Shown here: positions 33,533 to 64,000 of the stretch, piece after piece
Numbering within the stretch: position 1 is the first letter of the stretch
Layout of the letters: each line of letters opens with the position of its first letter
NCBI GenBank assembly: GCA_963730095.1
Contig: CAVSQJ010000001.1
Coordinates: forward strand, 689,599 to 753,598
Direction: 5' to 3'
DNA from: an uncultured Acidobacteriota bacterium
Lineage (GTDB): Bacteria; Acidobacteriota; Vicinamibacteria; Vicinamibacterales; SCN-69-37
Length of the DNA stretch: 64,000 nucleotides
Position numbers and translations under genes: made by a program
Notes under the pieces: model-generated
Told to the model about the DNA's origin: nothing
Database searches by the model: none
Seen by the model: only the letters and a program-made list of their open reading frames with translations

Positions 33533-33886
33533 ATGCCGAAACGAGGAACGCCGCCCATCGAGGGCGATCTGCTGCAGGGCACGCTGGACCTGCTCATCCT
33601 GAGGACCGTCGCGCTCGGCGCGGCCCACGGCCACGCGATCGCGCACGCCATCGAGCGCCAGTCCGACGCGGTCCTCCAGGTCGAGCACGGCTCGCTCTAC
33701 CCGGCGCTGCACCGGCTCGAAGACCGCGGCTGGATCGCGTCGTTCTGGGGCACGTCGGAGAACAATCGCCGCGCGCGCTACTACCGCCTGACGCCGGCCG
33801 GCCGTCGCCAGCTCGCGCAGCAGACGTCACGGTGGGACGTGCTCGTCGGCGCCATCAACCGCGTGCTCCGACCGACGGGAGGCTAG
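33533..33886 (+). CDS. PadR family transcriptional regulator
   Basis: [64 protein letters not shown]. The stop directly abuts the permease GTG start. Confidence 0.9.
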
Positions 33887-36580
33887 GTGGGCGTCTCGCG
33901 CTTCTGGCGTCGCGCGAGGTGGGACGATGAACGTCGCGCCGAGCTCGAGGACTACGTCGCGCGCGAAACCGAGGACAACCTCGCGCGCGGCCTCAGTCCG
34001 GACGAAGCGCACGCGCGGGCCCTTCGCAAGCTTGGCAACGCCACGCTCGTGCGTGAGGAGATCTTCGAGATGAATACGATCAACTGGCTCGAGTCCGTCT
34101 GGCAGGACGTGAGGTACGGCGCGCGTGTGCTCCGCCGCAGTCCCGCGTTCGCCATTGTCGCGCTCCTCTCGCTCGCGCTCGGCATCGGCGCCAACGCGGC
34201 GATTTTTCAGCTGCTCGACATCGTGCGGCTGCGAACGCTCCCGCTCCACCGCCCCGAAGAGATCTTCGAGGTCCGCATCGGCCCGAACAAGACTGGTCGC
34301 ACAGGCTCGTTCCAGGGCACGAGGCCGTCGCTGACCAATCCGATCTGGGAGCAGATTCGCGATCAGCAGCAGTCGTTTTCGGACCTCGTCGCGTACGGCT
34401 CAGCCACGTTCGATCTCTCATCGGGCGGCGAAGCGCGGCCGGCGGAGGGCCTGTTCGTCAGCGGCCGCTTTTTCCATCTCCTCGAAGGACGCGCCGAGCG
34501 CGGGCGGCTGATCGAAGCCGGCGACGATGTGCGCGGATGTGGATCGCCGGGAGCGGTGATCAGCGCCGCGTTCTGGCAGAAGGAATTCGGCGGGGCAGGC
34601 GACATCGTCGGCCGCGCGCTCAGGCTCGACGGCCAGCCTGTGCCAATTATCGGCGTCGTCAATCGCGGGTTCGCCGGAATCGAGGTCGGCCGCCGCACGG
34701 ATGCGTATCTGCCGATTTGCGCCCGGCCACTCCTCAAGCGAAGCGATCCAGGGATCGACGCGCGCGCCGTCTGGTGGCTCGCGGCGTTCGGACGCCTCGA
34801 GCCGGGCACGACGATCGAGCAAGCGAAGGCCGAGCTGGCGTCGCGGTCGCCGGCGATCTTCCAGTCGACGGTCGCGCCCAACTACGCTCCAGAGGACGCG
34901 AAAGGCTACCAGGCCTTTCAGCTCTCGGCGTTTCCCGCCGGCACGGGCGTGTCCGGGCTGCGCGCCCGCTACAGCGATTCTCTGACGGTGTTGCTCTCGA
35001 TTGCCGGGCTCGTGCTGCTGATCGCGTGCGCGAACCTGGCGAACCTCATGCTCGCGCGCGGGGCGGCACGGGCGCGCGAGATTTCGCTGCGATTGGCGAT
35101 TGGCGCGTCGCGTCGGCGCGTGTTCCGGCAGCTGATCGCCGAGAGCCTGCTGCTCGCCGGTCTCGGCGCGGCGGCCGGCATCTGGCTGGCCCTCGCGCTG
35201 AGCCGTCTGCTCGTTGCGATCCTCGTGAGCGACGGCGGCCCGTGGACGCTCGATCTCGCGATCGACTGGCGCCTGGCGGGCTTCACGGTCGCGCTCGCGG
35301 TCGTCGCGTGCCTGCTGTTCGGCCTGTGGCCCGCCTGGCGCGCCACGCGCACCCAGCCCAGCGAGGTGCTGAGGCGATCGGGCCGAGGCCTGACGGCGGA
35401 TCGCGGCCGCTTCATCGTGCGTCGCGTACTGGTCGTGTCGCAGATCGCGATCTCGCTCGTCCTCGTGGTCGGCGCGCTCCTCTTCGTCGGCACGCTGGAG
35501 AACCTGACGACGGCCGATTTCGGGTTCTCCGATCGCGACGTGCTCACCGCGAATCTCGACTTGCGCCCGGCGGGCGTCGCGCCGGGCGCGATGCTGGTGT
35601 TTCAGCAGCGCCTGCTCGATCGGCTGCGCGCGGTGCCGGACGTGGCGCAGGCATCGTCGGCCGCGATCGTGCCGGTGAGCGGGTCGGGCTGGAATGAGAC
35701 GGTCATCATCGACGGCGAGAAGAAGGACGGGCATCCCGACGCGAATCGCGTGAGCGCGTCATTCTTCCAGGCGCTCGCCGTGCCGTTCATCTCGGGCCGC
35801 ACCTTCGACGCGCGTGACAAAGTGGGCGCGCCGCCGGTCGCCATCGTGAATGAGGCGTTCGCGGCGAAGTACCTCGGCGCCAATCCGATCGGGCGGTCGT
35901 TCAGGCTCGAGGTCGGCCCGGGCGATCCGGATCCGACCTTCGAGGTCATCGGCGTCGTGCACAACACGAAGTATCGCGATCTGCGCGAGCCGCTCGGACC
36001 GATCATGTACTTCGCGGACACTCAGGAGGCCGAGCCGTCGCCGTTCATCACGGTGGTCGTCAGGGCGCGGCACGATTCGGCGGCGCTCCGCGCGAGCCTG
36101 ATGCGCGCGGTCGCCGACGTGCATCCGGCGATCACGGTGACACTGCAGTCGATGACCGAACAGATCCAGAGCACGCTGCTGCGCGAACGGCTGATGGCCG
36201 CGCTCTCGGGCGGCTTTGCGGCGCTCGCCGTCGTGCTTGCGGCCGTCGGCCTCTACGGCCTGATGGCGTACGGCGTGGCGCGGCGACGCAACGAGATCGG
36301 CGTGCGCGTGGCGCTTGGCGCCACGCGCGGCCGCATCGTCCTGATGATCGTTCGCGAGACGGCGATCCTCGTGGTCGCCGGCGTCGTCGCCGGCGTCGGG
36401 TTGACGATCTGGTCGGGCCGCGCGGCCGAGGCGCTGCTCTATGGCCTCACCGGATCCGATCCGCGAATGCTGGCGATCGGCGTCCTCGCGCTCACGGCCG
36501 TCGCCGTCATCGCGAGCGTGGTGCCCGCGCAGCGGGCCGCGCGGCTGGATCCGACGACGGCGCTGCGCGAAGAAACGTAG
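33887..36580 (+). CDS. ADOP-type duplicated MacB/FtsX permease with helical prefix
   Basis: 897 aa. Prefix is ELEDYVARETEDNLARGLSPDEAHARALRKLGN. Two FtsX blocks; ends LDPTTALREET. Confidence 0.9.
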   Translation: MGVSRFWRRARWDDERRAELEDYVARETEDNLARGLSPDEAHARALRKLGNATLVREEIFEMNTINWLESVWQDVRYGARVLRRSPAFAIVALLSLALGIGANAAIFQLLDIVRLRTLPLHRPEEIFEVRIGPNKTGRTGSFQGTRPSLTNPIWEQIRDQQQSFSDLVAYGSATFDLSSGGEARPAEGLFVSGRFFHLLEGRAERGRLIEAGDDVRGCGSPGAVISAAFWQKEFGGAGDIVGRALRLDGQPVPIIGVVNRGFAGIEVGRRTDAYLPICARPLLKRSDPGIDARAVWWLAAFGRLEPGTTIEQAKAELASRSPAIFQSTVAPNYAPEDAKGYQAFQLSAFPAGTGVSGLRARYSDSLTVLLSIAGLVLLIACANLANLMLARGAARAREISLRLAIGASRRRVFRQLIAESLLLAGLGAAAGIWLALALSRLLVAILVSDGGPWTLDLAIDWRLAGFTVALAVVACLLFGLWPAWRATRTQPSEVLRRSGRGLTADRGRFIVRRVLVVSQIAISLVLVVGALLFVGTLENLTTADFGFSDRDVLTANLDLRPAGVAPGAMLVFQQRLLDRLRAVPDVAQASSAAIVPVSGSGWNETVIIDGEKKDGHPDANRVSASFFQALAVPFISGRTFDARDKVGAPPVAIVNEAFAAKYLGANPIGRSFRLEVGPGDPDPTFEVIGVVHNTKYRDLREPLGPIMYFADTQEAEPSPFITVVVRARHDSAALRASLMRAVADVHPAITVTLQSMTEQIQSTLLRERLMAALSGGFAALAVVLAAVGLYGLMAYGVARRRNEIGVRVALGATRGRIVLMIVRETAILVVAGVVAGVGLTIWSGRAAEALLYGLTGSDPRMLAIGVLALTAVAVIASVVPAQRAARLDPTTALREET

Positions 36581-36589
36581 CGGCCAGGA

Positions 36590-36886
36590 TTACCCGCCCG
36601 CCATCGCGCCGACGATCAGGAACGGCTCGCGGCCGCGGGCGACCGCGTCGGGCAGCGGTGCGTCCGGGCGCTCGAACGACCAATCTTCCTCACAGGCAAA
36701 GAAGCGCACGAGCGGCCGGCGCTCGTGCGTCACCTGATCGCGAATCGTGCCGCAGAGCATCGGGTAACGCGCCTCGAGGGCGTCGAGAATGGCGCGCGGC
36801 GTGACGACGCTCCCGACGTCGAGCGCGAGCTCACCGCCGACGTTGGCGAGCGTTCTGAGGTGCACCGGCAGGACGACGCGAATCAT
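36590..36886 (-). CDS. MoaD/ThiS-family ubiquitin-like protein ending in Gly-Gly
   Basis: 98 aa from [48 protein letters not shown], then stop. Confidence 0.8.
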
Positions 36887-36891
36887 CGGGC

Positions 36892-38022
36892 TCACCGGGA
36901 CGCGGCGGAGACCGTCTGCACTTCGACCGAGAGCACCGGCGGAAGATTCTGCGCGATCGCGGTCCAGTGATCGCCGCCATCCTTCGACGCGTAGACCTGG
37001 CCGCCCGACGTGCCGAAGTACACGCCGCACTCGTCGAGCCGGTCGACCGCCATCGCGTCGCGCAACACGTTCACGTAGCAATCCTGCTGCGGCAGACCGT
37101 TGGTGAGCGGCTCCCACTCGTTGCCGCCGGTGCGGCTGCGATAGACGCGCAGCTTGCCGTCGGGCGGGTAGTGCTCCGAGTCGCTCTTGATCGGGACGAC
37201 GTAGATCGTGTCGGGCTCATGCGCGTGGACGTCGATCGCGAAGCCGAAATCCGTCGGCAGATTTCCGCTGACCTCGTGCCACGATTCGCCGGCGTCATGG
37301 CTGCGCATGACATCCCAATGCTTCTGCATGTACAGCACGTTCGGGCGCTCGGCGTGCATGGCGATGTGGTGAACGCAGTGGCCGACCTCCGCGTCCGGAT
37401 CAGGCAACACGCCCTGCGACATCAGACCCTTGTTGATCGGCCGCCACGTTGCGCCGTCATCGTCGGTGCGAAATGCGCCGGCGGCCGAGATCGCGATGAA
37501 CATGCGGCCCGCGTGTTTGACGTCCGCGATGATCGTGTGCAGGCACAGTCCGCCCGCGCCCGGCTGCCAGTGGGACGCGGACTTGTGCGTGCGCAGCCCG
37601 GGCAGCTCCTGCCATGTCGCGCCGCCGTCGGTCGTGCGGAAGAGCGCGGCGTCCTCGACGCCCGCGTAGACCGTGTCCGGATCGCCCGGCGAGGGCTCGA
37701 GATGCCACACGCGCTTGAACTCCCACGGGTGCGGCGTGCCGTCGTACCACTTGTGCGGGCCGGGCGTGCCTTCGTAGAGGAATTTGTTGCCGACGGGCTC
37801 CCACGTCTTGCCGGCGTCATTCGAGCGCTGAATGAGCTGGCCGAACCAGCCGCTGCTTTGCGACGCGTAGAGGCGATCCGGATTCGCCGGCGATCCCTTC
37901 AGGTGGTAGATCTCCCAGCCGCCAAAGTGCGGGCCGGCGATCTTCCACGTCGCCCGCCGGCCGTCGGCGGTGAGCACGAACGCGCCCTTGCGCGTTCCCA
38001 CGAGCACGCGGACCCCGTTCAT
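36892..38022 (-). CDS. BNR/Asp-box (sialidase/sortilin-like) beta-propeller protein, no signal peptide
   Basis: Repeated Asp-box-like SxDxGxTW motifs: [53 protein letters not shown]. Confidence 0.8.
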
Positions 38023-39245
38023 CGTTTTCTTCCTTTAATGAGGACGTCCAGGCTGTCGTTGCGGTCGTTGTAGAAATCGAGCCGGATCTTCTGATCGGCC
38101 GTTTCCGAAATGACGGCCGGAATCGAAGAAGCCGTCAGATACCAGCCGGCCGGCAGCACGACCGAGTTGCGCGGCCGTCCAAGACTGCGATCGAAGACGA
38201 AATCCTGGCCCTCGAGGCGATAGCTCTCGGGCGCCGCGTAGGTTTCCGAGATACGCAGCCGGACCGACTGGCCCGGCTTGACGGCGGGGAAGTAGACGAC
38301 GACCACTTCGGTGTCCGGCGCGACGGTGCCGGCGTCGATCTTCGCGGCCGTGATCGCCTCGCCCTTGAGAATCTCGTCTTTCAACGCTTCGCCCGTGTCG
38401 AGGATGATCGCGGAGGGATTGGACACGTGACTGCCCGTGCGGACCTCGTTGACGTACTTGTCGATGCCCGGCCGCGATTCGGTGTAGTCGTGAAACAGGC
38501 TGAACGAGCTCGTCGATGGATCCTGCAGGAAGTACGTGATGTCGCGGTCCTGATGCGCGCGCTCGGCGAGGCGCGTACGTTCGGTCGGGCCCTGCGCAGG
38601 CGGCGGCTCCCAGCTGCGCTTGTCGGTGAGCGGCGTGGGCGCGGCGGCGGCGCCTGACTTCACCCCCGCCCGCGTCCTGACCACGAGCGTCGTCGCCCCC
38701 GGCGCCTGATTCATGAACGCGACGCTGATCCGTCCGTCCGGCTGCGACAGCACCTGCGAGGCGACGTTGCACCCGATGAGCTCGTACCCGGCCGGCACGA
38801 CGACCAGTCCGCGTCGCGCGGGCAGGAGCACGGAAAACGTGACCACGCCGTTTTCCGCCTGCGAGTAGCCGCGCGAATCGCGAATGGTTTTCTCGAGCCG
38901 GATCCGCGCCTGACCGCTGCGCGGCACCGGCCGCGCGAGCGCGACGATGAGCTGGCTCGGGTTCTGCGTGATGATGAGAGGCTGTCCCGTCATCATGTCC
39001 GTGGCGCCCGCGTCGGTCACGATCGTGCCGGGCACGATCGGATCGGTGTAACGCGCCATGTTCTCGGTCGTCGCGCTGACCTCGAACGACACGTGGAACG
39101 ACGCCGTCGTGGGCGCCAGCAGGTCGTAGCGCACGTACTCGTCGGTCTGCGTCTGCACGGGCTGGATTTGCGCGCGGCCCGCGGAGCCGACCAGCGTGCA
39201 CAGCGCGAGCCCCGCCGCCAGCCAGGTTCGGTCACGTCGTGTCAT
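38019..39245 (-). CDS. Secreted hypothetical protein built from two homologous ~190-aa halves
   Basis: Start at [20 protein letters not shown] (M99 of ORF 38019..39539). The two halves align (..[30 protein letters not shown].. against ..[30 protein letters not shown]..). There is a 4-nt overlap with the BNR gene. Confidence 0.6.
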
Positions 39246-39247
39246 GG

Positions 39248-41407
39248 TCACTTCCCCGGCTGATACGTGCGCGTCGTGTGTCCCTGCAGCTGCGCCGGGT
39301 AGAAGTACACCTCGCGCAGATCGCCCGTGGCGTAGCGCTTGGCCTCGTCGTTGAAGTGCGGCGACTTCGGGATCGCCGCTTTCGCCGCCGGCGGTGACGG
39401 CCCGAGCGCGCACCGTCGGTCCAAACTCGACGACAGCGACGAAGCTGTTGCCGCTCGTGCCGTACCATTTCTTCGTGCCAGGATACGCGCGCGCGCCGAA
39501 CGAGGCGAGCGAGCCCCACGTGGCGGAGGTGAACGGCACCGGAATGACTCGGGCCCGCGTCGTTGAAGGGCTGGACGATGTCGCCGGTGAGGCGCTGGAA
39601 GCGATTGATGTCGCCCCACGGCGTTTTCCACGTGCCGAAGTCCGACGTCAGCCGGCCGCACGCTGCGACGAGCGCCTGCAGCAGCTGACCTGCGGCGCGC
39701 GGCCGTCCACCGGGCCGCCTCGTCCGCGGCCGCCGGCGCGCTGCGCTTCTTCGCCCCAGAACACCGCGAGCGACGTCGGGATCGAATCGGCGGCCCAGCG
39801 CAGATCCCACCCGCGCAGCTGCGCGATCGTTCCGCGAGCGACGCCTTCAGCGGATCGCCGGGTGGCAGCGCGTCGTACGCCTTGATGAGCGCCGGCATCG
39901 GCTTCTCGAACCACGTCAGATAGCTGTCGAACGCGGCGCCGACGAGCGAATCGAGCGTGAAGTCCTTCTTGTCCTGCAACACGCGCACGGCGTGCAGTCC
40001 GCGCGCCGATTCGCTGCCGTTGTCCACGTACTTCGGGTAGTCGCTCTGCTTCGGGCTGCTCGGCCCCGCGGCCGACCACGGCCAGTTGTTGGAGTTGTAG
40101 AGCCAGCCGCTCGCCGGATTGAGCAGGTGCGGCGTCTCGTCGATCGAGAGCAGGCCCTGCTAGTCGGTCTCCGGATTGCTGCCGTCGACCGGCTTCGTCC
40201 AGTCGAAGCTGGGGTCGCGCTTCGGGATGAAGTTGCCGTGGAAGTACGCGATGTCGCCGTCGGCGTCGGCGAAGATCGTGTTGTTCGACGAGTTGGTGTG
40301 CAGCTCCAGCGACTGCCGGAACGACTTGTAGTCGGTCGCCTTCGTGCGCGAGTAGGACTGCGTCAGCGCCTTCACCGGCTCGTTCATCAGCGCGAACGCG
40401 ACCCACTTGCCGTTCATGTCGCGGACGATGGGCCCGTGCTGCGTGCTGATACGTCGTGAACGCCTTCTTCGCCATGCCGGTGTCCGTCTTGTACGGCACG
40501 GTGATCTCGCTCGTCGACACCGGCCGCTCGTCATTGCCGTACTTGTAGAAGTAGCTTGCCGCCGCTGTTCGTCGACGGTCTCGAGGAACTCGTCCGGTTG
40601 CATCGACGCCGCTCGACGTGTGCATCCAGCCGGCGCGCGCGATTGAAGCCCTGGTAGACGAAGAACTGTCCCCACGTCGCCGCGCCGTAGGCGTCGAGGC
40701 CTTCGTCGCTCGTCATCTGCAGCTCGGAGCGGAAGAAGAACGACGTGTGCGGATTGATCAGCAGCAGCGCGTGATGGCCGACGGTGTTCGACGGCGCGAT
40801 CGCACGCCGTTCGAGCCGCGCGGCTCTTCGTCGGCCGGCGCCGGCTCGGGCGGCAGCTCGCTCGCCGGCGTCTTGCCGTAGAACGCCTGCAGCTGATTGA
40901 GGTTCACGCGCTCGATGTCGCCGCCGATGCTGCCCTCGGTGAAGCGACAGCGCCATCCACGGCTCGAAGTGCGTGATCACGCGCGGCTTCACGCCGGGAT
41001 GCTTCGCGAGATAGAAGTTGAGACCGTCCGCCCACGCGTTCATCAGGCTCTTGAGCCACGCCGGGCTCGACGCGTAGTCCTTCTTCAGCGACCTCCGGGT
41101 CGATGAACAGCTTCATGCGCAGGTCCTGCTAGACCTTCGACTCGCCTTCGGCTTCCGCCAGCCGGCCCATCGCGTTGATGTAGTTCGTCTCGACGCGATT
41201 GAAGTCGTCCTCGGCCTGCGCGTAGATCATGCCGAACACGGCGTCGGCGTCGGTCTTGCCGGTGACGTGCGCGATGCCCCAGTCGTCGCGGACGATCGTG
41301 ATGCGGCCCGCTTGCTGCTGCCAGCGCGCCATGTCGGCGCTCTGCAGCGCGGACGGCACGGTGACGGGCACGGCGAGGATGAGAAAGAGGAGAAGGAGTT
41401 TTTTCAT
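39248..41407 (-). pseudogene. S45 penicillin-amidase/AHL-acylase family gene, heavily disrupted (about 11-12 frameshifts plus 2 in-frame TAG)
   Basis: Colinear family segments are scattered over all three minus frames of the track. In order: signal peptide plus RDDWGIAHV.., MNAWADGLNFYLAKHPGVKPRVITHFEPWMALS, APSNTVGHHALLLINPHTSFFFRSELQM (nucleophile Ser), MHTSSGVDA, KWVAFALMNEP..IAYFHGNFIPKRDP, NPASGWLYNSNNWPW (my translation), TWKTPWGDINRFQR, PFTSATWGSLASFGARAYPGTKKWYGTSGNSFVAVVEF, SPHFNDEAKRYATGDLREVYFYP. Confidence 0.85.
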
Positions 41408-62165: not shown

Positions 62166-63629
62166 TCAGTATTTCGGCAGTGTCGGATCGACTGCCGCGA
62201 TCCACGCCAGAATCCCGCCCGTGAGGTTGCTGGCGCGCGCGTAGCCGTGCTGGCGGAGCAGGGCGACGGCCTTGGCGCTGCGGCCGCCCATCTTGCAGTG
62301 CACGACGATGTCCGGCGCGTCGGGGCCTGAGGGAATCTCGGCGAGGCGCTTCGGTAGCTCGCCGAGCGGAATCAACGTCGAGCCGGGAATGCGGCAGATG
62401 TCGAACTCGCGCGGCTCGCGCACATCCAGAATCCACGTCGGCGTGCCGCGGTCCAGGCGCGCCTTGAGCTCCTCGACCGTGATCTCCGGTTCGGTCGACG
62501 CCGCCGCCGCGGTCGCGGCCGGCGCGACGCCGCAGAACTGCTCGTAGTCGATGAGCGCCTTGATCGTCGGCCGATCGCCGCAGATCGGACACGCCGGATC
62601 GCGCCGCAGCTTCACCGTGCGGAACTCCATCGTCAGCGCGTCGAGCAGCAGGAGCCGGCCCGCGAGCGTCTGTCCGGCGCCGGTGATGATCTTGATCGCT
62701 TCGGTCGCCTGGATCGTGCCGACCAGCCCCGGCAGGACGCCGAGCACGCCGCCCTCGGCGCAGCTCGGCACGAGGCCCGGGGGCGGCGGCTCCGGATAGA
62801 GGCAGCGGTAGCACGGGCCGTCCTTCGTCGCGAAGACCGAGGCCTGTCCATCGAACCGGAAGATGCTGCCGTACGCGTTCGGCTTGCCGAGCAGCACGCA
62901 GGCGTCGTTGACGAGGTAGCGCGTCGGGAAATTGTCCGCGCCGTCGACGATGACGTCGTACTGCGCGAAAAGATCTCGAGCGCGTTCGCCGACGTCAGCC
63001 GCGTTTCGTGCTCGACGACGCGCACGTTCGGATTGAGGTCGACGTGAGCCGTTCGGCGGCCGCCGCGAGCTTGCGGCCGACCGACGTCCGCCGTCGATGT
63101 ACAGGATCTGCCGCTGCAGGTTGCTGAAATCGACCGTGTCGAAATCCACCAACCCGAGCGTGCCGACGCCCGCGGCCGTGAGGTAGAGCGAGGCCGGCGA
63201 ACCCAGGCCGCCGGCGCCGATGCAAAGCACGCGCGCGGCCTTCAGGCGCTTCTGACCCTCGACGCCGATCTCCGGCATGATGAGGTGCCGACTGTAGCGC
63301 CGGACCTCTTCATGCGAGAGCGCCGCTGGGTCGGCCGGCGCCGCCACCGCGTCCGTGCCGCCGGCGACCGACGGCACGATGCTCACGGTGTCCGCCGCGC
63401 CGACCGCCGTCCGCTCGCGATCCAGATACCGCACGTCCTCGTCGTTCACGTACACGTTGACGAAGCTGCGCAGCGATCCATCCGACGCAAACAGATGCGG
63501 CTTCAGATCGACGTACTCGCTCGTCAGGCGATCGAGGACCTGTCCAACCGTGGCGCCCTCGACGTGGACGACGGCCTGCTGGGCCGTGAACGGCCGGAGG
63601 GGCGTGGGAATGCGAACGGTTACGGGCAT
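62166..63629 (-). pseudogene. CysO/ThiS-like Ubl (GG at aa 90-91) fused to a MoeZ/MoeB-type E1 adenylyltransferase and a C-terminal rhodanese; about 45 codons internally out of frame
   Basis: The Ubl domain reads MPVTVRIPTPLRPFT..FVNVYVNDEDVRYL..TVSIVPSVAGG. The E1 domain reads RYSRHLIMPEIG..VLCIGAGGLGSP..CYRCLYPEPP..CPICG. The rhodanese domain reads VVHCKMGGRS. The middle segment is nonsense in the long ORF, while ORFs 62995..63225 and 62633..63025 read GRKLAAAAERLT and VRVVEHETRLTSANALEIF. Confidence 0.85.
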
Positions 63630-64000
63630 GACGGGCTCCTTGGAGTCGAAAGGGTGACGAGCTCTTCAACGTACGCGCTGCGGTCCGGCCGCAGGCGCCA
63701 GGATCGCAGCTCGGCGTCGCGTCCGGCGCGGACCGAGACGATCGCGTAGCTGAGATTGGGCCACGCGTGCTCCAGGTCGAATGCGGAGGGCACGGCCGGG
63801 TGGTCCGGATGCGAATGGTAGAAGCCGAGCAGCTCGCGGCTGGTCTCGGACGCGCGCTGCTCGGCCCGCCGGTAGTCATCGGGCGTGACGGCAAATCGCC
63901 GCCGGCGCTCGCCGTCGAAGCGATTGTCGAGCGCGAGCGTGTCGTCGACGACGCCCGCGCGCGGCCCAAGCAGGGCGCCGCAGCACTCGTCGGGATACGC
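63620..64000 (-). CDS. JAMM/MPN+ metalloprotease (Mec/Mov34-like), N-terminus outside the window
   Basis: My translation is AYPDECCGALLG..ELLGFYHSHPDHPAVPSAFD (E..HxHx7Sx2D JAMM motif)..stop TAA at 63620-63622. It overlaps the downstream ATG (63629) by 10 nt, and an AAGGAG RBS lies inside its 3' end. It is not in the ORF track because the start lies outside the window. Confidence 0.85.
   Translation of the reverse strand, partial: AYPDECCGALLGPRAGVVDDTLALDNRFDGERRRRFAVTPDDYRRAEQRASETSRELLGFYHSHPDHPAVPSAFDLEHAWPNLSYAIVSVRAGRDAELRSWRLRPDRSAYVEELVTLSTPRSPSCP

Follow-up and report, generated by a model that had tools for sequence, protein, structure and literature searches.

A conserved two-gene module of a predicted seven-bladed Asp-box propeller and a GG-ended ThiS/MoaD-superfamily protein in an uncultured Acidobacteriota bacterium

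What does a small protein that resembles a MoaD/ThiS sulfur carrier do beside a cytoplasmic beta-propeller, and which of the genes around it belong to the same system? The question comes from a 64,000-nucleotide stretch of DNA of an uncultured Acidobacteriota bacterium (the window, by which we always mean that whole stretch). An earlier note had described three tightly packed minus-strand genes there, with a 4-nt overlap and a 5-nt gap, and a small protein that ends ..IVGAMAGG-stop. The coordinates and the packing match what we found, and so does the end of the protein at 36590-36886 on the minus strand. The features concerned are:

36590-36886, minus strand: carrier gene, coding for a 98-aa clade-A protein of predicted beta-grasp ubiquitin-like/sulfur-carrier type that ends ..IVGAMAGG-stop (ORF and sequence)
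36892-38022, minus strand: propeller gene, 376 aa, a predicted 7-bladed Asp-box/BNR propeller of the YP_299179.1 / PDB 3b7f family (Pfam, phmmer, homologue model)
38019-39245, minus strand: gene of a 408-aa protein, predicted to be exported, whose two halves are homologous; it has the same orientation and lies outside the conserved module (ORF, half-against-half alignment)
62166-63629, minus strand: ThiS, ThiF (E1) and rhodanese in a single ORF of MoeZ type, a candidate trans-acting activator (Pfam)
63620-64000, minus strand: JAMM/Mec-type metalloprotease gene, truncated by the window end and part of the E1 locus (motif by reading)

Our conclusion is that the real unit is a translationally coupled module of two genes, a cytoplasmic 7-bladed Asp-box propeller and its own GG-ended ThiS/MoaD-superfamily protein. 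In the window the two genes are separated by a 5-nt spacer (gcccg). Of 77 testable loci of the window's own clade (clade A), all from different species, 74 have the propeller gene directly upstream of the carrier gene and in the same orientation; the record titles of these genomes name about 10 phyla, Actinomycetota included. The note had mentioned such an adjacency for actinobacteria; it is real and much stronger than that, and it extends to a second propeller clade (clade B, see below). Propeller identity in the pair loci is 68-83%, both proteins are about 70-80% identical across phyla with synonymous sites near saturation, and stop and start codons of the two genes overlap as ATGA in 45 loci.

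We found no third conserved gene in clade A by neighbour clustering, among the genes that interrupt the pair in some loci (TA modules, Fic and the like) or among the nearest upstream ORFs, and the upstream neighbours are heterogeneous. The frequent neighbours are HxlR/PadR regulators, DoxX, VOC/PhnB-like and YCII proteins and an ECF sigma factor, each in at most 28% of the loci. In 80 clade-A and 80 clade-B loci, the conserved neighbours include no thiG, no moaE, moaA or other Moco gene, no carbohydrate-utilisation gene and neither a JAMM nor an E2-like gene. The note was right that the neighbours are not moaE or cofactor genes, and it had set moaE adjacency beforehand as the refutation; across phyla it is the BNR adjacency that is conserved. 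We also set aside an anti-phage Ubl system of the Bil/Bub/CBASS-Cap2 type, since the neighbours hold no E2 or DUB and PADLOC gave no match for the carrier, the propeller or the 408-aa protein. A tblastn search of a plasmid collection with the carrier gave no match.

A concatenated propeller and carrier query returned about 15 fused proteins, most of which are artefacts that arose from frameshifts at the ATGA overlap, in long contigs of ENA assemblies. One of them, P0125 (locus L094, a JGI contig), is a clean in-frame propeller-carrier fusion; it is the sole fusion that we checked at the DNA level, and it looks genuine. The AF2 model of the fused protein, made with a mixed alignment, reached a pTM of 0.76, but its last GG residues had a pLDDT of 37, so we saw no confident docking of the tail.

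The propeller has Pfam matches to Sortilin-Vps10 and BNR. Reading of the sequence shows five canonical Asp-boxes and one degenerate box (SRTGGNEW), and an N-terminus that enters a beta-strand at once, with nothing signal-like before it, which bears out the earlier description of a five-Asp-box propeller without a signal peptide and adds one box to it. With phmmer it aligned to 3b7f over residues 4-367 (E 9.7e-63; about 35% identity), and the model of P0125, whose propeller is 79% identical to that of the window, matched 3b7f in Foldseek with an E-value of 4e-34 and a TM of 0.87. These comparisons place the window protein in the YP_299179.1 / 3b7f family, whose members are single Asp-box propellers of 7 blades. 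Across both clades H162 and R321 are invariant and H146 and H218 nearly so. C216 is present in 26 of 29 sequences by column count; 3b7f has Asp there and a Cys three residues on. The alignment holds no residue with obvious sulfur chemistry that is invariant over both clades.

Sortilin Vps10, Ycf48 and DAIP belong to the same propeller supercluster and bind C-terminal segments of peptides or proteins on a face or in a tunnel, which is a precedent for the docking of a GG tail. Unlike the window propeller, they are extracellular, lumenal or periplasmic, have 10 or 7 blades and have no Ubl partner, and their TM is 0.4-0.6. JGI labels the propeller 'photosystem II stability/assembly factor-like', and we rejected Ycf48/HCF136 because PSII_BNR scored 19.4 bits against a cut-off of 27, the NCBIfam model NF010237 scored 18.3 against 326, and no signal or lipobox was seen by reading. 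The fitness literature on COG4447 deals with another BNR protein, whose gene goes together with DUF1302, DUF1329 and RND export genes.

Clade B was sampled by a metagenome scan with the 3b7f sequence alone as query. Its propellers, 65-73% identical to 3b7f, are followed in 56 of 67 loci by a gene for about 86 aa that ends ALSGG-stop. With adjacency in 74/77 and 56/67 loci, the pairing cannot be coincidence. We rejected gidB-parA-parB and atpI-B-F-H beside clade-B pairs as lineage synteny and not module partners, and two apparent neighbour clusters turned out to be Arg-rich shadow ORFs. 3b7f itself, the structural-genomics structure of YP_299179.1 (Reut_B4987, 'glycosyl hydrolase, BNR repeat') of Ralstonia eutropha JMP134, differs from the window propeller in that it lacks a 12-residue insertion and three of four cysteines present in every clade-A sequence examined. 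The structure has 7 blades, 5 Asp-boxes and an open 9 x 11 Angstrom tunnel, and in 2009 its family was called functionally uncharacterised (PMC2716378), so there is no function to transfer to the window propeller. The literature that we searched, which covered few subscription papers, gave no publication on the propeller-carrier pair, no assigned function (as the note had supposed) and nothing later than that 2009 statement.

The 98-aa carrier has no Pfam or NCBIfam match at E<=0.1 and a sequence search of the PDB was likewise empty, so we turned to its fold and to profile-profile comparison. The AF2 model (pLDDT 89.8, pTM 0.83) has a beta-grasp fold. Its best PDB matches in Foldseek are SAMP1, CysO, MoaD-related proteins and Urm1 (probability 1.00, TM 0.6-0.8), with SAMP1 (3po0) at the top, the CysO chains 3dwg_C and 4n6e_B among the leading ones, and MoaD and MOCS2A chains also present; identity to CysO is about 20%. 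The carriers of clade B are shorter (86 aa against 98 aa) and, unlike that of the window, recognisable by Pfam: three that we tested scored 30-47 bits against ThiS (cut-off 22.5). The clade-A family profile aligns with clade-B carriers over the full length (hhalign 97.1%, E 6e-11), so the ThiS membership of the window carrier is transitive only. NCBI names the homologues 'MoaD/ThiS family protein', and the model fold, the profile alignment and this naming together place the 98-aa protein, as predicted, in the MoaD/ThiS group. Databases also use 'molybdopterin synthase sulfur carrier subunit'.

The family comprises more than 8000 homologues, counted as database clusters, with identities of 73-88% across phyla; identity stays near 75% when carriers of Acidobacteriota are compared with those of Actinomycetota, Nitrospirota and Planctomycetota. 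In an alignment of 22 sequences, 42 of 98 columns are invariant, spread along the whole length, and the GG end is kept; a GG-stop terminus is present in about 78 of 86 clade-A loci. C65 of clade A is Asn in clade-B carriers.

Is there an enzyme that could activate such a carrier? According to the gene calls, the window has no E1, MoaE or other cofactor gene within about 10 kb of the pair, and there the note's "no E1 nearby" holds. As a trait of the system it does not, since in 9 of 50 clade-B loci the carrier gene is directly followed, in the same orientation, by a ThiF+rhodanese gene, among surrounding genes that vary, and a ThiF+rhodanese E1 is divergently adjacent to the pair in one clade-A locus (L086). 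The nine clade-B cases are probably one lineage, as their carrier sequences are very similar, and in clade A an E1 lies within 10 kb in 2 of 80 loci. The E1/JAMM pair that the note placed about 25 kb away is real (62.2-64.0 kb). Pfam divides the product of 62166-63629 into ThiS (5-91), ThiF (112-348) and rhodanese (384-478), and it is 46-54% identical to the E1s that adjoin the carrier in clade-B loci and in L086; the translation of 63620-64000 shows ..GFYHSHPDHPAVPSAFD.., which we read by eye as a JAMM/MPN+ motif. From the adjacency in relatives we infer that a ThiF/MoeB-type E1 activates the carrier, and the gene at 62166-63629 may do so in trans for the carrier at 36.6 kb.

The best reading of the pair, also suggested by the note, is a module for sulfur transfer or tagging in which carrier and propeller work together. 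We base the following mechanism on what we observed, namely the composition of the module, the fold, the conservation of GG and the adjacency of E1 in relatives. The carrier would be adenylated at its GG carboxylate and made into a thiocarboxylate by a MoeZ-type E1-rhodanese, encoded beside the pair in some lineages and, in the window, presumably acting in trans from the candidate gene at 62166-63629. The activated carrier would then dock on the propeller and probably reach into its central pocket or tunnel with the flexible GG tail, and the propeller would be the dedicated downstream partner that takes the place of MoaE, ThiG, CysM or BexX and puts the sulfur (or the tag) to use, or receives it, for a substrate. 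The neighbouring HxlR/PadR, DoxX, VOC/PhnB-like, YCII and ECF sigma genes hint at a role in thiol or electrophile stress. For this explanation as a whole we give a probability of about 0.5.

The CysO/MoeZ(R)/Mec/CysM cysteine pathway of Mycobacterium tuberculosis has a small GG-ended beta-grasp carrier like that of the pair and an activator of the same ThiF+rhodanese type as is found beside the pair in relatives and elsewhere in the window, and CysO is also hijacked by BexX for the synthesis of 2-thiosugars. However, CysM is a PLP enzyme and BexX/ThiG a TIM barrel whereas the partner here is an Asp-box propeller, and the pair has no linked JAMM gene. MoaD-MoaE is likewise a two-gene unit of a GG-ended beta-grasp carrier and a dedicated partner, and in molybdopterin synthase the carrier tail inserts into MoaE; here the fold of the partner is unrelated and no MoaE or Moco gene lies near any of about 160 loci. 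We therefore rejected the carrier as MoaD proper, as it lacks a MoaE/Moco pairing in the 80 clade-A and 80 clade-B loci and within about 10 kb in the window. SAMP1-UbaA of Haloferax, Urm1-Uba4-Ahp1 and TtuB share the GG end with the carrier, whose model matches SAMP1 and Urm1; they are activated by an E1 only, with no E2 or E3, and are tied to oxidative or thiol stress, a setting that the neighbours of the pair hint at too. They have no counterpart to the fixed propeller partner, and the pair has no TtuA/Ncs6-type tRNA-thiolation partner nearby.

In favor of the mechanism we count the adjacency of the propeller and carrier genes across phyla with its ATGA overlaps, the E1 adjacency, the beta-grasp match to CysO, SAMP1, MoaD and Urm1, the GG ends, the same pairing in clade B, the lack of a third conserved gene, the one in-frame fusion, the high amino-acid identity (73-80%) despite near-saturated synonymous sites, the conserved His and Arg residues of the propeller, the open tunnel of 3b7f and the ability of one E1 to serve several carriers. 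Against it we count the rarity of a nearby E1 in clade A (2/80) and the probable single lineage of the nine clade-B cases, the missing Pfam ThiS match of the carrier (E<=0.1), the fusion model with no confidently docked tail, the absence of a sulfur-chemistry residue invariant over both clades, and stress-type neighbours that reach no more than 28% of loci. We also know of no beta-propeller among the enzymes that use thiocarboxylates, which counts against it too. As for the E1 that serves several carriers, MoeZR does so for both CysO and MoaD (PMC3227635).

The same E1 chemistry could instead join the carrier to target lysines, as in the SAMP, Urm1 and TtuB systems, perhaps coupled to cysteine persulfidation as for Urm1-Ahp1, with the propeller as the main target, an adaptor or an E2/E3-like catalyst that works through Cys-x-His. 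In its favor, the best structural matches of the carrier include SAMP1 and Urm1, its free GG terminus is strictly conserved, a JAMM protease gene adjoins the window E1, C216-x-H218 is nearly invariant on the propeller, the neighbours of the pair are of stress type, and Urm1 is conjugated with no E2 or E3 (PMC9574740). On the other hand, the pair has neither a JAMM nor an E2-like gene as a conserved neighbour, and C216 is not invariant, being displaced in 3b7f. Every adjacent E1 carries a rhodanese, which points to thiocarboxylate formation, although Uba4 has a rhodanese domain as well and this feature is therefore compatible with tagging. Overall we consider this form of tagging rather unlikely.

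The carrier might also never be adenylated and serve the propeller as a structural or regulatory subunit in an obligate non-covalent heterodimer, its GG tail kept as a plug. Translational coupling suggests that the two proteins are expressed 1:1, and the probable natural fusion, the invariant columns along the entire carrier, the many loci with no E1 nearby and the binding of peptide C-termini by Asp-box propellers (by analogy with sortilin, Ycf48 and DAIP) fit this idea. It fits poorly with a GG-stop that is kept over two clades with propellers of only about 35% identity; to our knowledge, GG directly before the stop typifies carriers that are activated, and beta-grasp domains that are not activated do not keep it. 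In addition, E1-rhodanese is the only recurrent third gene, and the fusion model did not place the tail with confidence. We regard the heterodimer as improbable.

The database names would make the propeller an ordinary glycoside hydrolase, sialidase or xyloglucanase-like, and the carrier a bystander MoaD for molybdopterin synthesis ('glycosyl hydrolase, BNR repeat', 'sialidase family protein' and 'molybdopterin synthase sulfur carrier subunit'), and among the structural matches GH74 enzymes come next behind 3b7f. We think this very improbable. For a sialidase (GH33), Pfam BNR_2 scored 19.6 bits against a cut-off of 31.4 (PSII_BNR is below its cut-off too), and reading found no FRIP motif and no signal peptide. 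GH74 xyloglucanases have two tandem 7-bladed propellers with the catalytic cleft in between; the window protein is a single 376-aa propeller, and the GH74 matches span one of their two. Carbohydrate-utilisation, moaE and moaA genes are not conserved nearby, the adjacency in both clades excludes coincidence, and the 3b7f family is explicitly uncharacterised (PMC2716378).

The 408-aa protein was described as exported with two homologous halves, and the duplication is real (22% identity, E 2e-10), with a signal-peptide-like N-terminus by reading; it belongs to a large unnamed family with no Pfam match. That it works jointly with the propeller and the carrier as a three-gene operon is already effectively refuted: the window genome has the 4-nt overlap of its TGA with the propeller ATG (ATGA, 38019-38022) and further contigs of the window population keep the identical order, but the gene is present in 0 of 86 related carrier loci, its homologues elsewhere adjoin arginase/GH88 or MFS/DUF885 genes, close relatives have PadR inserted or substituted (amidase-408-PadR-propeller-carrier or amidase-PadR-propeller-carrier), and an exported protein would not share a compartment with a cytoplasmic propeller and carrier.

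We return to the proposed E1-activated carrier with the propeller as its partner. Ubiquitin has its prokaryotic roots in beta-grasp carriers that end in GG. As far as we know, each known GG carrier has led to a distinct chemistry of sulfur insertion or tagging (Moco, thiamin, cysteine, thio-tRNA, thiosugars, SAMPylation), and the Asp-box propeller fold has never been linked to such chemistry. Tentatively, and at clearly less than even odds, the propeller could be the effector in such a pathway, either as a new class of thiocarboxylate-dependent enzyme or as an E2/E3-like protein or 'reader' in E1-only tagging under thiol or electrophile stress, with the His and Arg residues (usually with Cys-x-His), taken to lie on the inner blade strands, receiving the GG tail. 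If true, this would be the first beta-propeller in a prokaryotic Ubl/sulfur-carrier pathway. The crystal structure of 3b7f has been in the PDB since 2007, and apparently nobody noted its ThiS-family neighbour; the pairing with a ThiS-family carrier supplies this orphan structure with a testable hypothesis. The pair points to a strongly selected pathway in abundant soil and freshwater bacteria, the nitrite-oxidising Nitrospira included.

The window holds three closely packed genes, placed by ORF calling and by the sequence itself:

38019-39245, minus strand: ORF of 408 aa
36892-38022, minus strand: ORF of 376 aa, the propeller
36590-36886, minus strand: ORF of 98 aa ending ..IVGAMAGG-stop, the carrier

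The ATG of the propeller overlaps the TGA of the 408-aa ORF as ATGA, and 5 nt separate the propeller from the carrier, in a window of about 69% G+C. By reading, the 376-aa protein has five canonical Asp-boxes, one degenerate one and an N-terminus that is not signal-like. It matches Sortilin-Vps10 and BNR in Pfam, and one solved structure, 3b7f, matches it over its full length (E 1e-62); that entry is named "glycosyl hydrolase, BNR repeat" and comes from Ralstonia eutropha JMP134. The earlier note's description of the ORFs, their tight packing, the Asp-box propeller and the GG end was accurate.

The 98-aa protein had no sequence matches in Pfam, NCBIfam or the PDB. We modeled it with AF2 from an alignment of 22 homologues, and the model is confident (pLDDT 89.8, pTM 0.83), though its C-terminal tail is floppy. 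Foldseek matches to this model in the PDB include SAMP1, M. tuberculosis CysO, the CysO of the BexX complex, a Thermus MoaD-related protein, human MOCS2A and Urm1. The family profile also aligns end to end with that of the ~86-aa carriers that accompany 3b7f-type propellers (clade B; the window's own families are clade A) at an hhalign probability of 97% and E 6e-11, terminus G-A-[ML]-[AS]-G-G included, and all three clade-B carriers tested score above the Pfam ThiS cut-off. By its fold and, transitively, through this profile link, we place the protein in the ThiS/MoaD beta-grasp superfamily as a divergent member that carries the diagnostic free Gly-Gly end, and the label "MoaD-like" that it had been given is borne out at superfamily level. 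Its matches fall into more than 8000 database clusters, which is a lower bound; the best 120 of these have identities of 73–88% and are labeled Vicinamibacterales, Nitrospiraceae, Gemmataceae or Methylomirabilota. In the 22-sequence alignment 42 of the 98 columns are invariant, and GG-stop is retained in about 78 of 86 clade-A loci. Two carriers in the locus set extend the GG by two residues (GGNQ and GGQI). The invariant carrier residue C65 is not a universal catalytic residue, since clade-B carriers have Asn there.

We scanned one genome per GTDB species, found at least 591 carrier matches and analyzed the best 80, whose record titles name Acidobacteriota, Nitrospirota, Methylomirabilota/Rokubacteria, Planctomycetota, Actinomycetota, Chloroflexota, Armatimonadota, Pseudomonadota, Binatia and Omnitrophota. 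A propeller homologue 68–83% identical to the window's lies immediately 5' of the carrier and co-directional with it in 74 of the 77 loci with upstream room, and at 45 loci its stop overlaps the carrier start as ATGA. The three carriers without an adjoining propeller follow a glucose-1-phosphate adenylyltransferase gene (L021), a secreted repeat protein gene (L023), and KaiC-like and histidine kinase genes (L075). Where propeller and carrier are separated, toxin-antitoxin pairs, a Fic gene or similar elements have been inserted. The window propeller shares 73–80% amino-acid identity with those of other phyla while four-fold synonymous sites are near saturation (identity 0.41–0.62, GC3 0.6–0.9), which argues for selection and not recent transfer.

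Clustering all ORFs within 7 kb of the clade-A pair gave no third conserved gene; propeller and carrier alone occur at high frequency. The next commonest neighbors are YCII (23 loci), ECF sigma with DUF6596 (13), PhnB-like, HxlR and VOC (11 each), DoxX (10), and DUF1579 and SRPBCC (9 each). The nearest genes 5' of the pair are heterogeneous, and only 2 of 80 loci have an E1 (a ThiF-type activating enzyme) less than 10 kb away. In three Nitrospiraceae loci (L001, L002, L003) and in L094 the pair is embedded in runs of small genes (several YCII paralogues, PhnB-like, DoxX, TrmO_N, DUF1579, DUF1428, glyoxalase/VOC), a recurrent "island" of small uncharacterized proteins. On the other side of the window's carrier, a PadR gene and then a gene for an 897-aa duplicated MacB_PCD/FtsX permease occupy 33533-36580 on the plus strand; the permease gene converges on the carrier gene with 9 nt between stops, as also seen in L005, L088 and L093. 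The related contig L005 has a second PadR-permease pair close by.

The 408-aa ORF does not belong to this pair, and the three-gene unit of the earlier note is not upheld. It is present in 0 of 86 related loci, its homologues elsewhere (L090-L093) sit in varied contexts beside unrelated genes, and the two closest relatives read amidase-408-PadR-propeller-carrier or amidase-PadR-propeller-carrier. Because PadR intervenes or replaces it there, the 4-nt overlap most likely arose when the PadR gene was lost locally, and it marks no functional link. The protein itself represents an uncharacterized family of secreted two-domain proteins, with 5853 matches, all "hypothetical", no Pfam match, a signal-peptide-like N-terminus (by reading), and, as had been proposed, two homologous halves, each of ~180 aa (22% identity, E 2e-10). 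Next to it, a penicillin-amidase gene (39248-41407, minus strand) is broken across at least five reading frames. In L087, which was assembled independently from the same population and is 99.2% identical over 10.4 kb, the amidase is intact at 716 aa; 17 of the 18 indels and most mismatches are inside this gene. This is not uniform sequencing error: either the gene is a pseudogene in decay or the consensus is poor at this spot.

In a HMMER library search with the propeller, the window's clade reduces to essentially one representative at 50% identity, and about 1000 remoter representatives (E<1e-30) are ~40% identical to it and to one another. 3b7f, ~35% identical to the window protein, belongs among these. 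We scanned metagenome contigs with its sequence (L095-L174). Of the 67 loci that extend far enough downstream, 56 have an ORF of ~86 aa ending ALSGG-stop whose start is at or near the propeller stop, often in an ATGA. The adjacency of MoaD-like and BNR genes, which the earlier note proposed to check by gene neighborhood, is thus conserved in both clades, and because the distant clades share it we conclude that the pair is an ancient module. At 9 of 50 clade-B loci the carrier is directly followed, on its own strand, by a gene for a 380-aa MoeZ-type E1 (ThiF+rhodanese), and the genes flanking the trio vary. The sole recurrent extra component is the type of E1 that adenylates and thiocarboxylates such carriers. 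The other recurrent neighbors, gidB-parA-parB and atpI-atpB-atpF-atpH, enclose the pair at many of these loci; we read them as lineage synteny and rejected them as functional partners. Such a position would be expected near the replication origin, and its housekeeping character implies that the pair has been passed on stably by vertical descent.

Across 29 propellers of all clades (window numbering), H162, R321, D327, W152 and Y335 are invariant besides the Asp-box Gly/Trp, H146, H218, Q233 and N197 are nearly so, and C216 is found in 26. From the strand pattern of a fusion model, we judge that these residues probably fall in successive blades, on or beside the first strand of each. The 3b7f propeller is described as atypically closed, with an open tunnel of 9 x 11 Angstrom (PMC2716378). 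A concatenated query recovered propeller-carrier fusions among public metagenome protein calls, most of them frameshift artefacts (P0126, P0129, P0130, P0135, P0136, P0139, P0145, P0146, P0155). These come from long contigs of ENA assemblies, with the frameshift at or near the ATGA overlap and, in some, further internal out-of-frame stretches. P0125, from the JGI contig L094 and the one checked at the DNA level, is a clean in-frame fusion (..VEVQTLACCDMIRV..). Its AF2 model (pLDDT 82, pTM 0.76) best matches 3b7f in the PDB (TM 0.87), then GH74 enzymes, Ycf48, DAIP and sortilin. Its last residues reach a pLDDT of just 37, so the model speaks neither for nor against tail docking.

A sulfur-carrier module is the best-supported reading of the pair. 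The GG end of the carrier would be activated by a MoeZ-type E1-rhodanese, encoded in cis in some lineages and acting in trans in the window, where this locus is the candidate:

62166-63629, minus strand: ThiS, ThiF E1 and rhodanese in one ORF (domain search)
63620-64000, minus strand: JAMM/Mec-type gene, cut by the window end, preceding that ORF

This is the E1/JAMM pair that had been noticed at 62-64 kb, here at 62.2–64.0 kb. E1 residues ~180–225 read like two compensating frameshifts, with a plausible true frame in ORF 62633-63025, so the ThiS-E1 "fusion" may be an assembly artefact too. MoeZR is known to serve more than one carrier (PMC3227635). The activated carrier would then work with its dedicated propeller, and we put the probability that the propeller uses the thiocarboxylate sulfur at about 0.5. 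It is unlikely that the carrier instead modifies the propeller itself, and a propeller that only binds the carrier is somewhat more doubtful again. The readings as a glycosidase, as Ycf48, as a MoaD for Moco and as a phage-defence Ubl system each fall short on one or more defining tests. The HxlR/PadR, DoxX, VOC/PhnB and YCII/ECF-sigma surroundings resemble quinone/electrophile regulons such as B. subtilis YodB/CatR-CatDE. By analogy, this neighborhood weakly suggests that the pair may act in thiol stress.

We found no description of the pair in the literature, a provisional result as most subscription journals were outside the search. The sole discussion of the 3b7f propeller family that we found called it functionally uncharacterized in 2009 (PMC2716378). 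We take the pair to be a carrier system of ThiS/MoaD type whose partner belongs to a class with no known precedent; its weight lies in the conservation and breadth of the module, and direct experiments could resolve it. The pairing gives an orphan crystal structure, 3b7f, a functional hypothesis.
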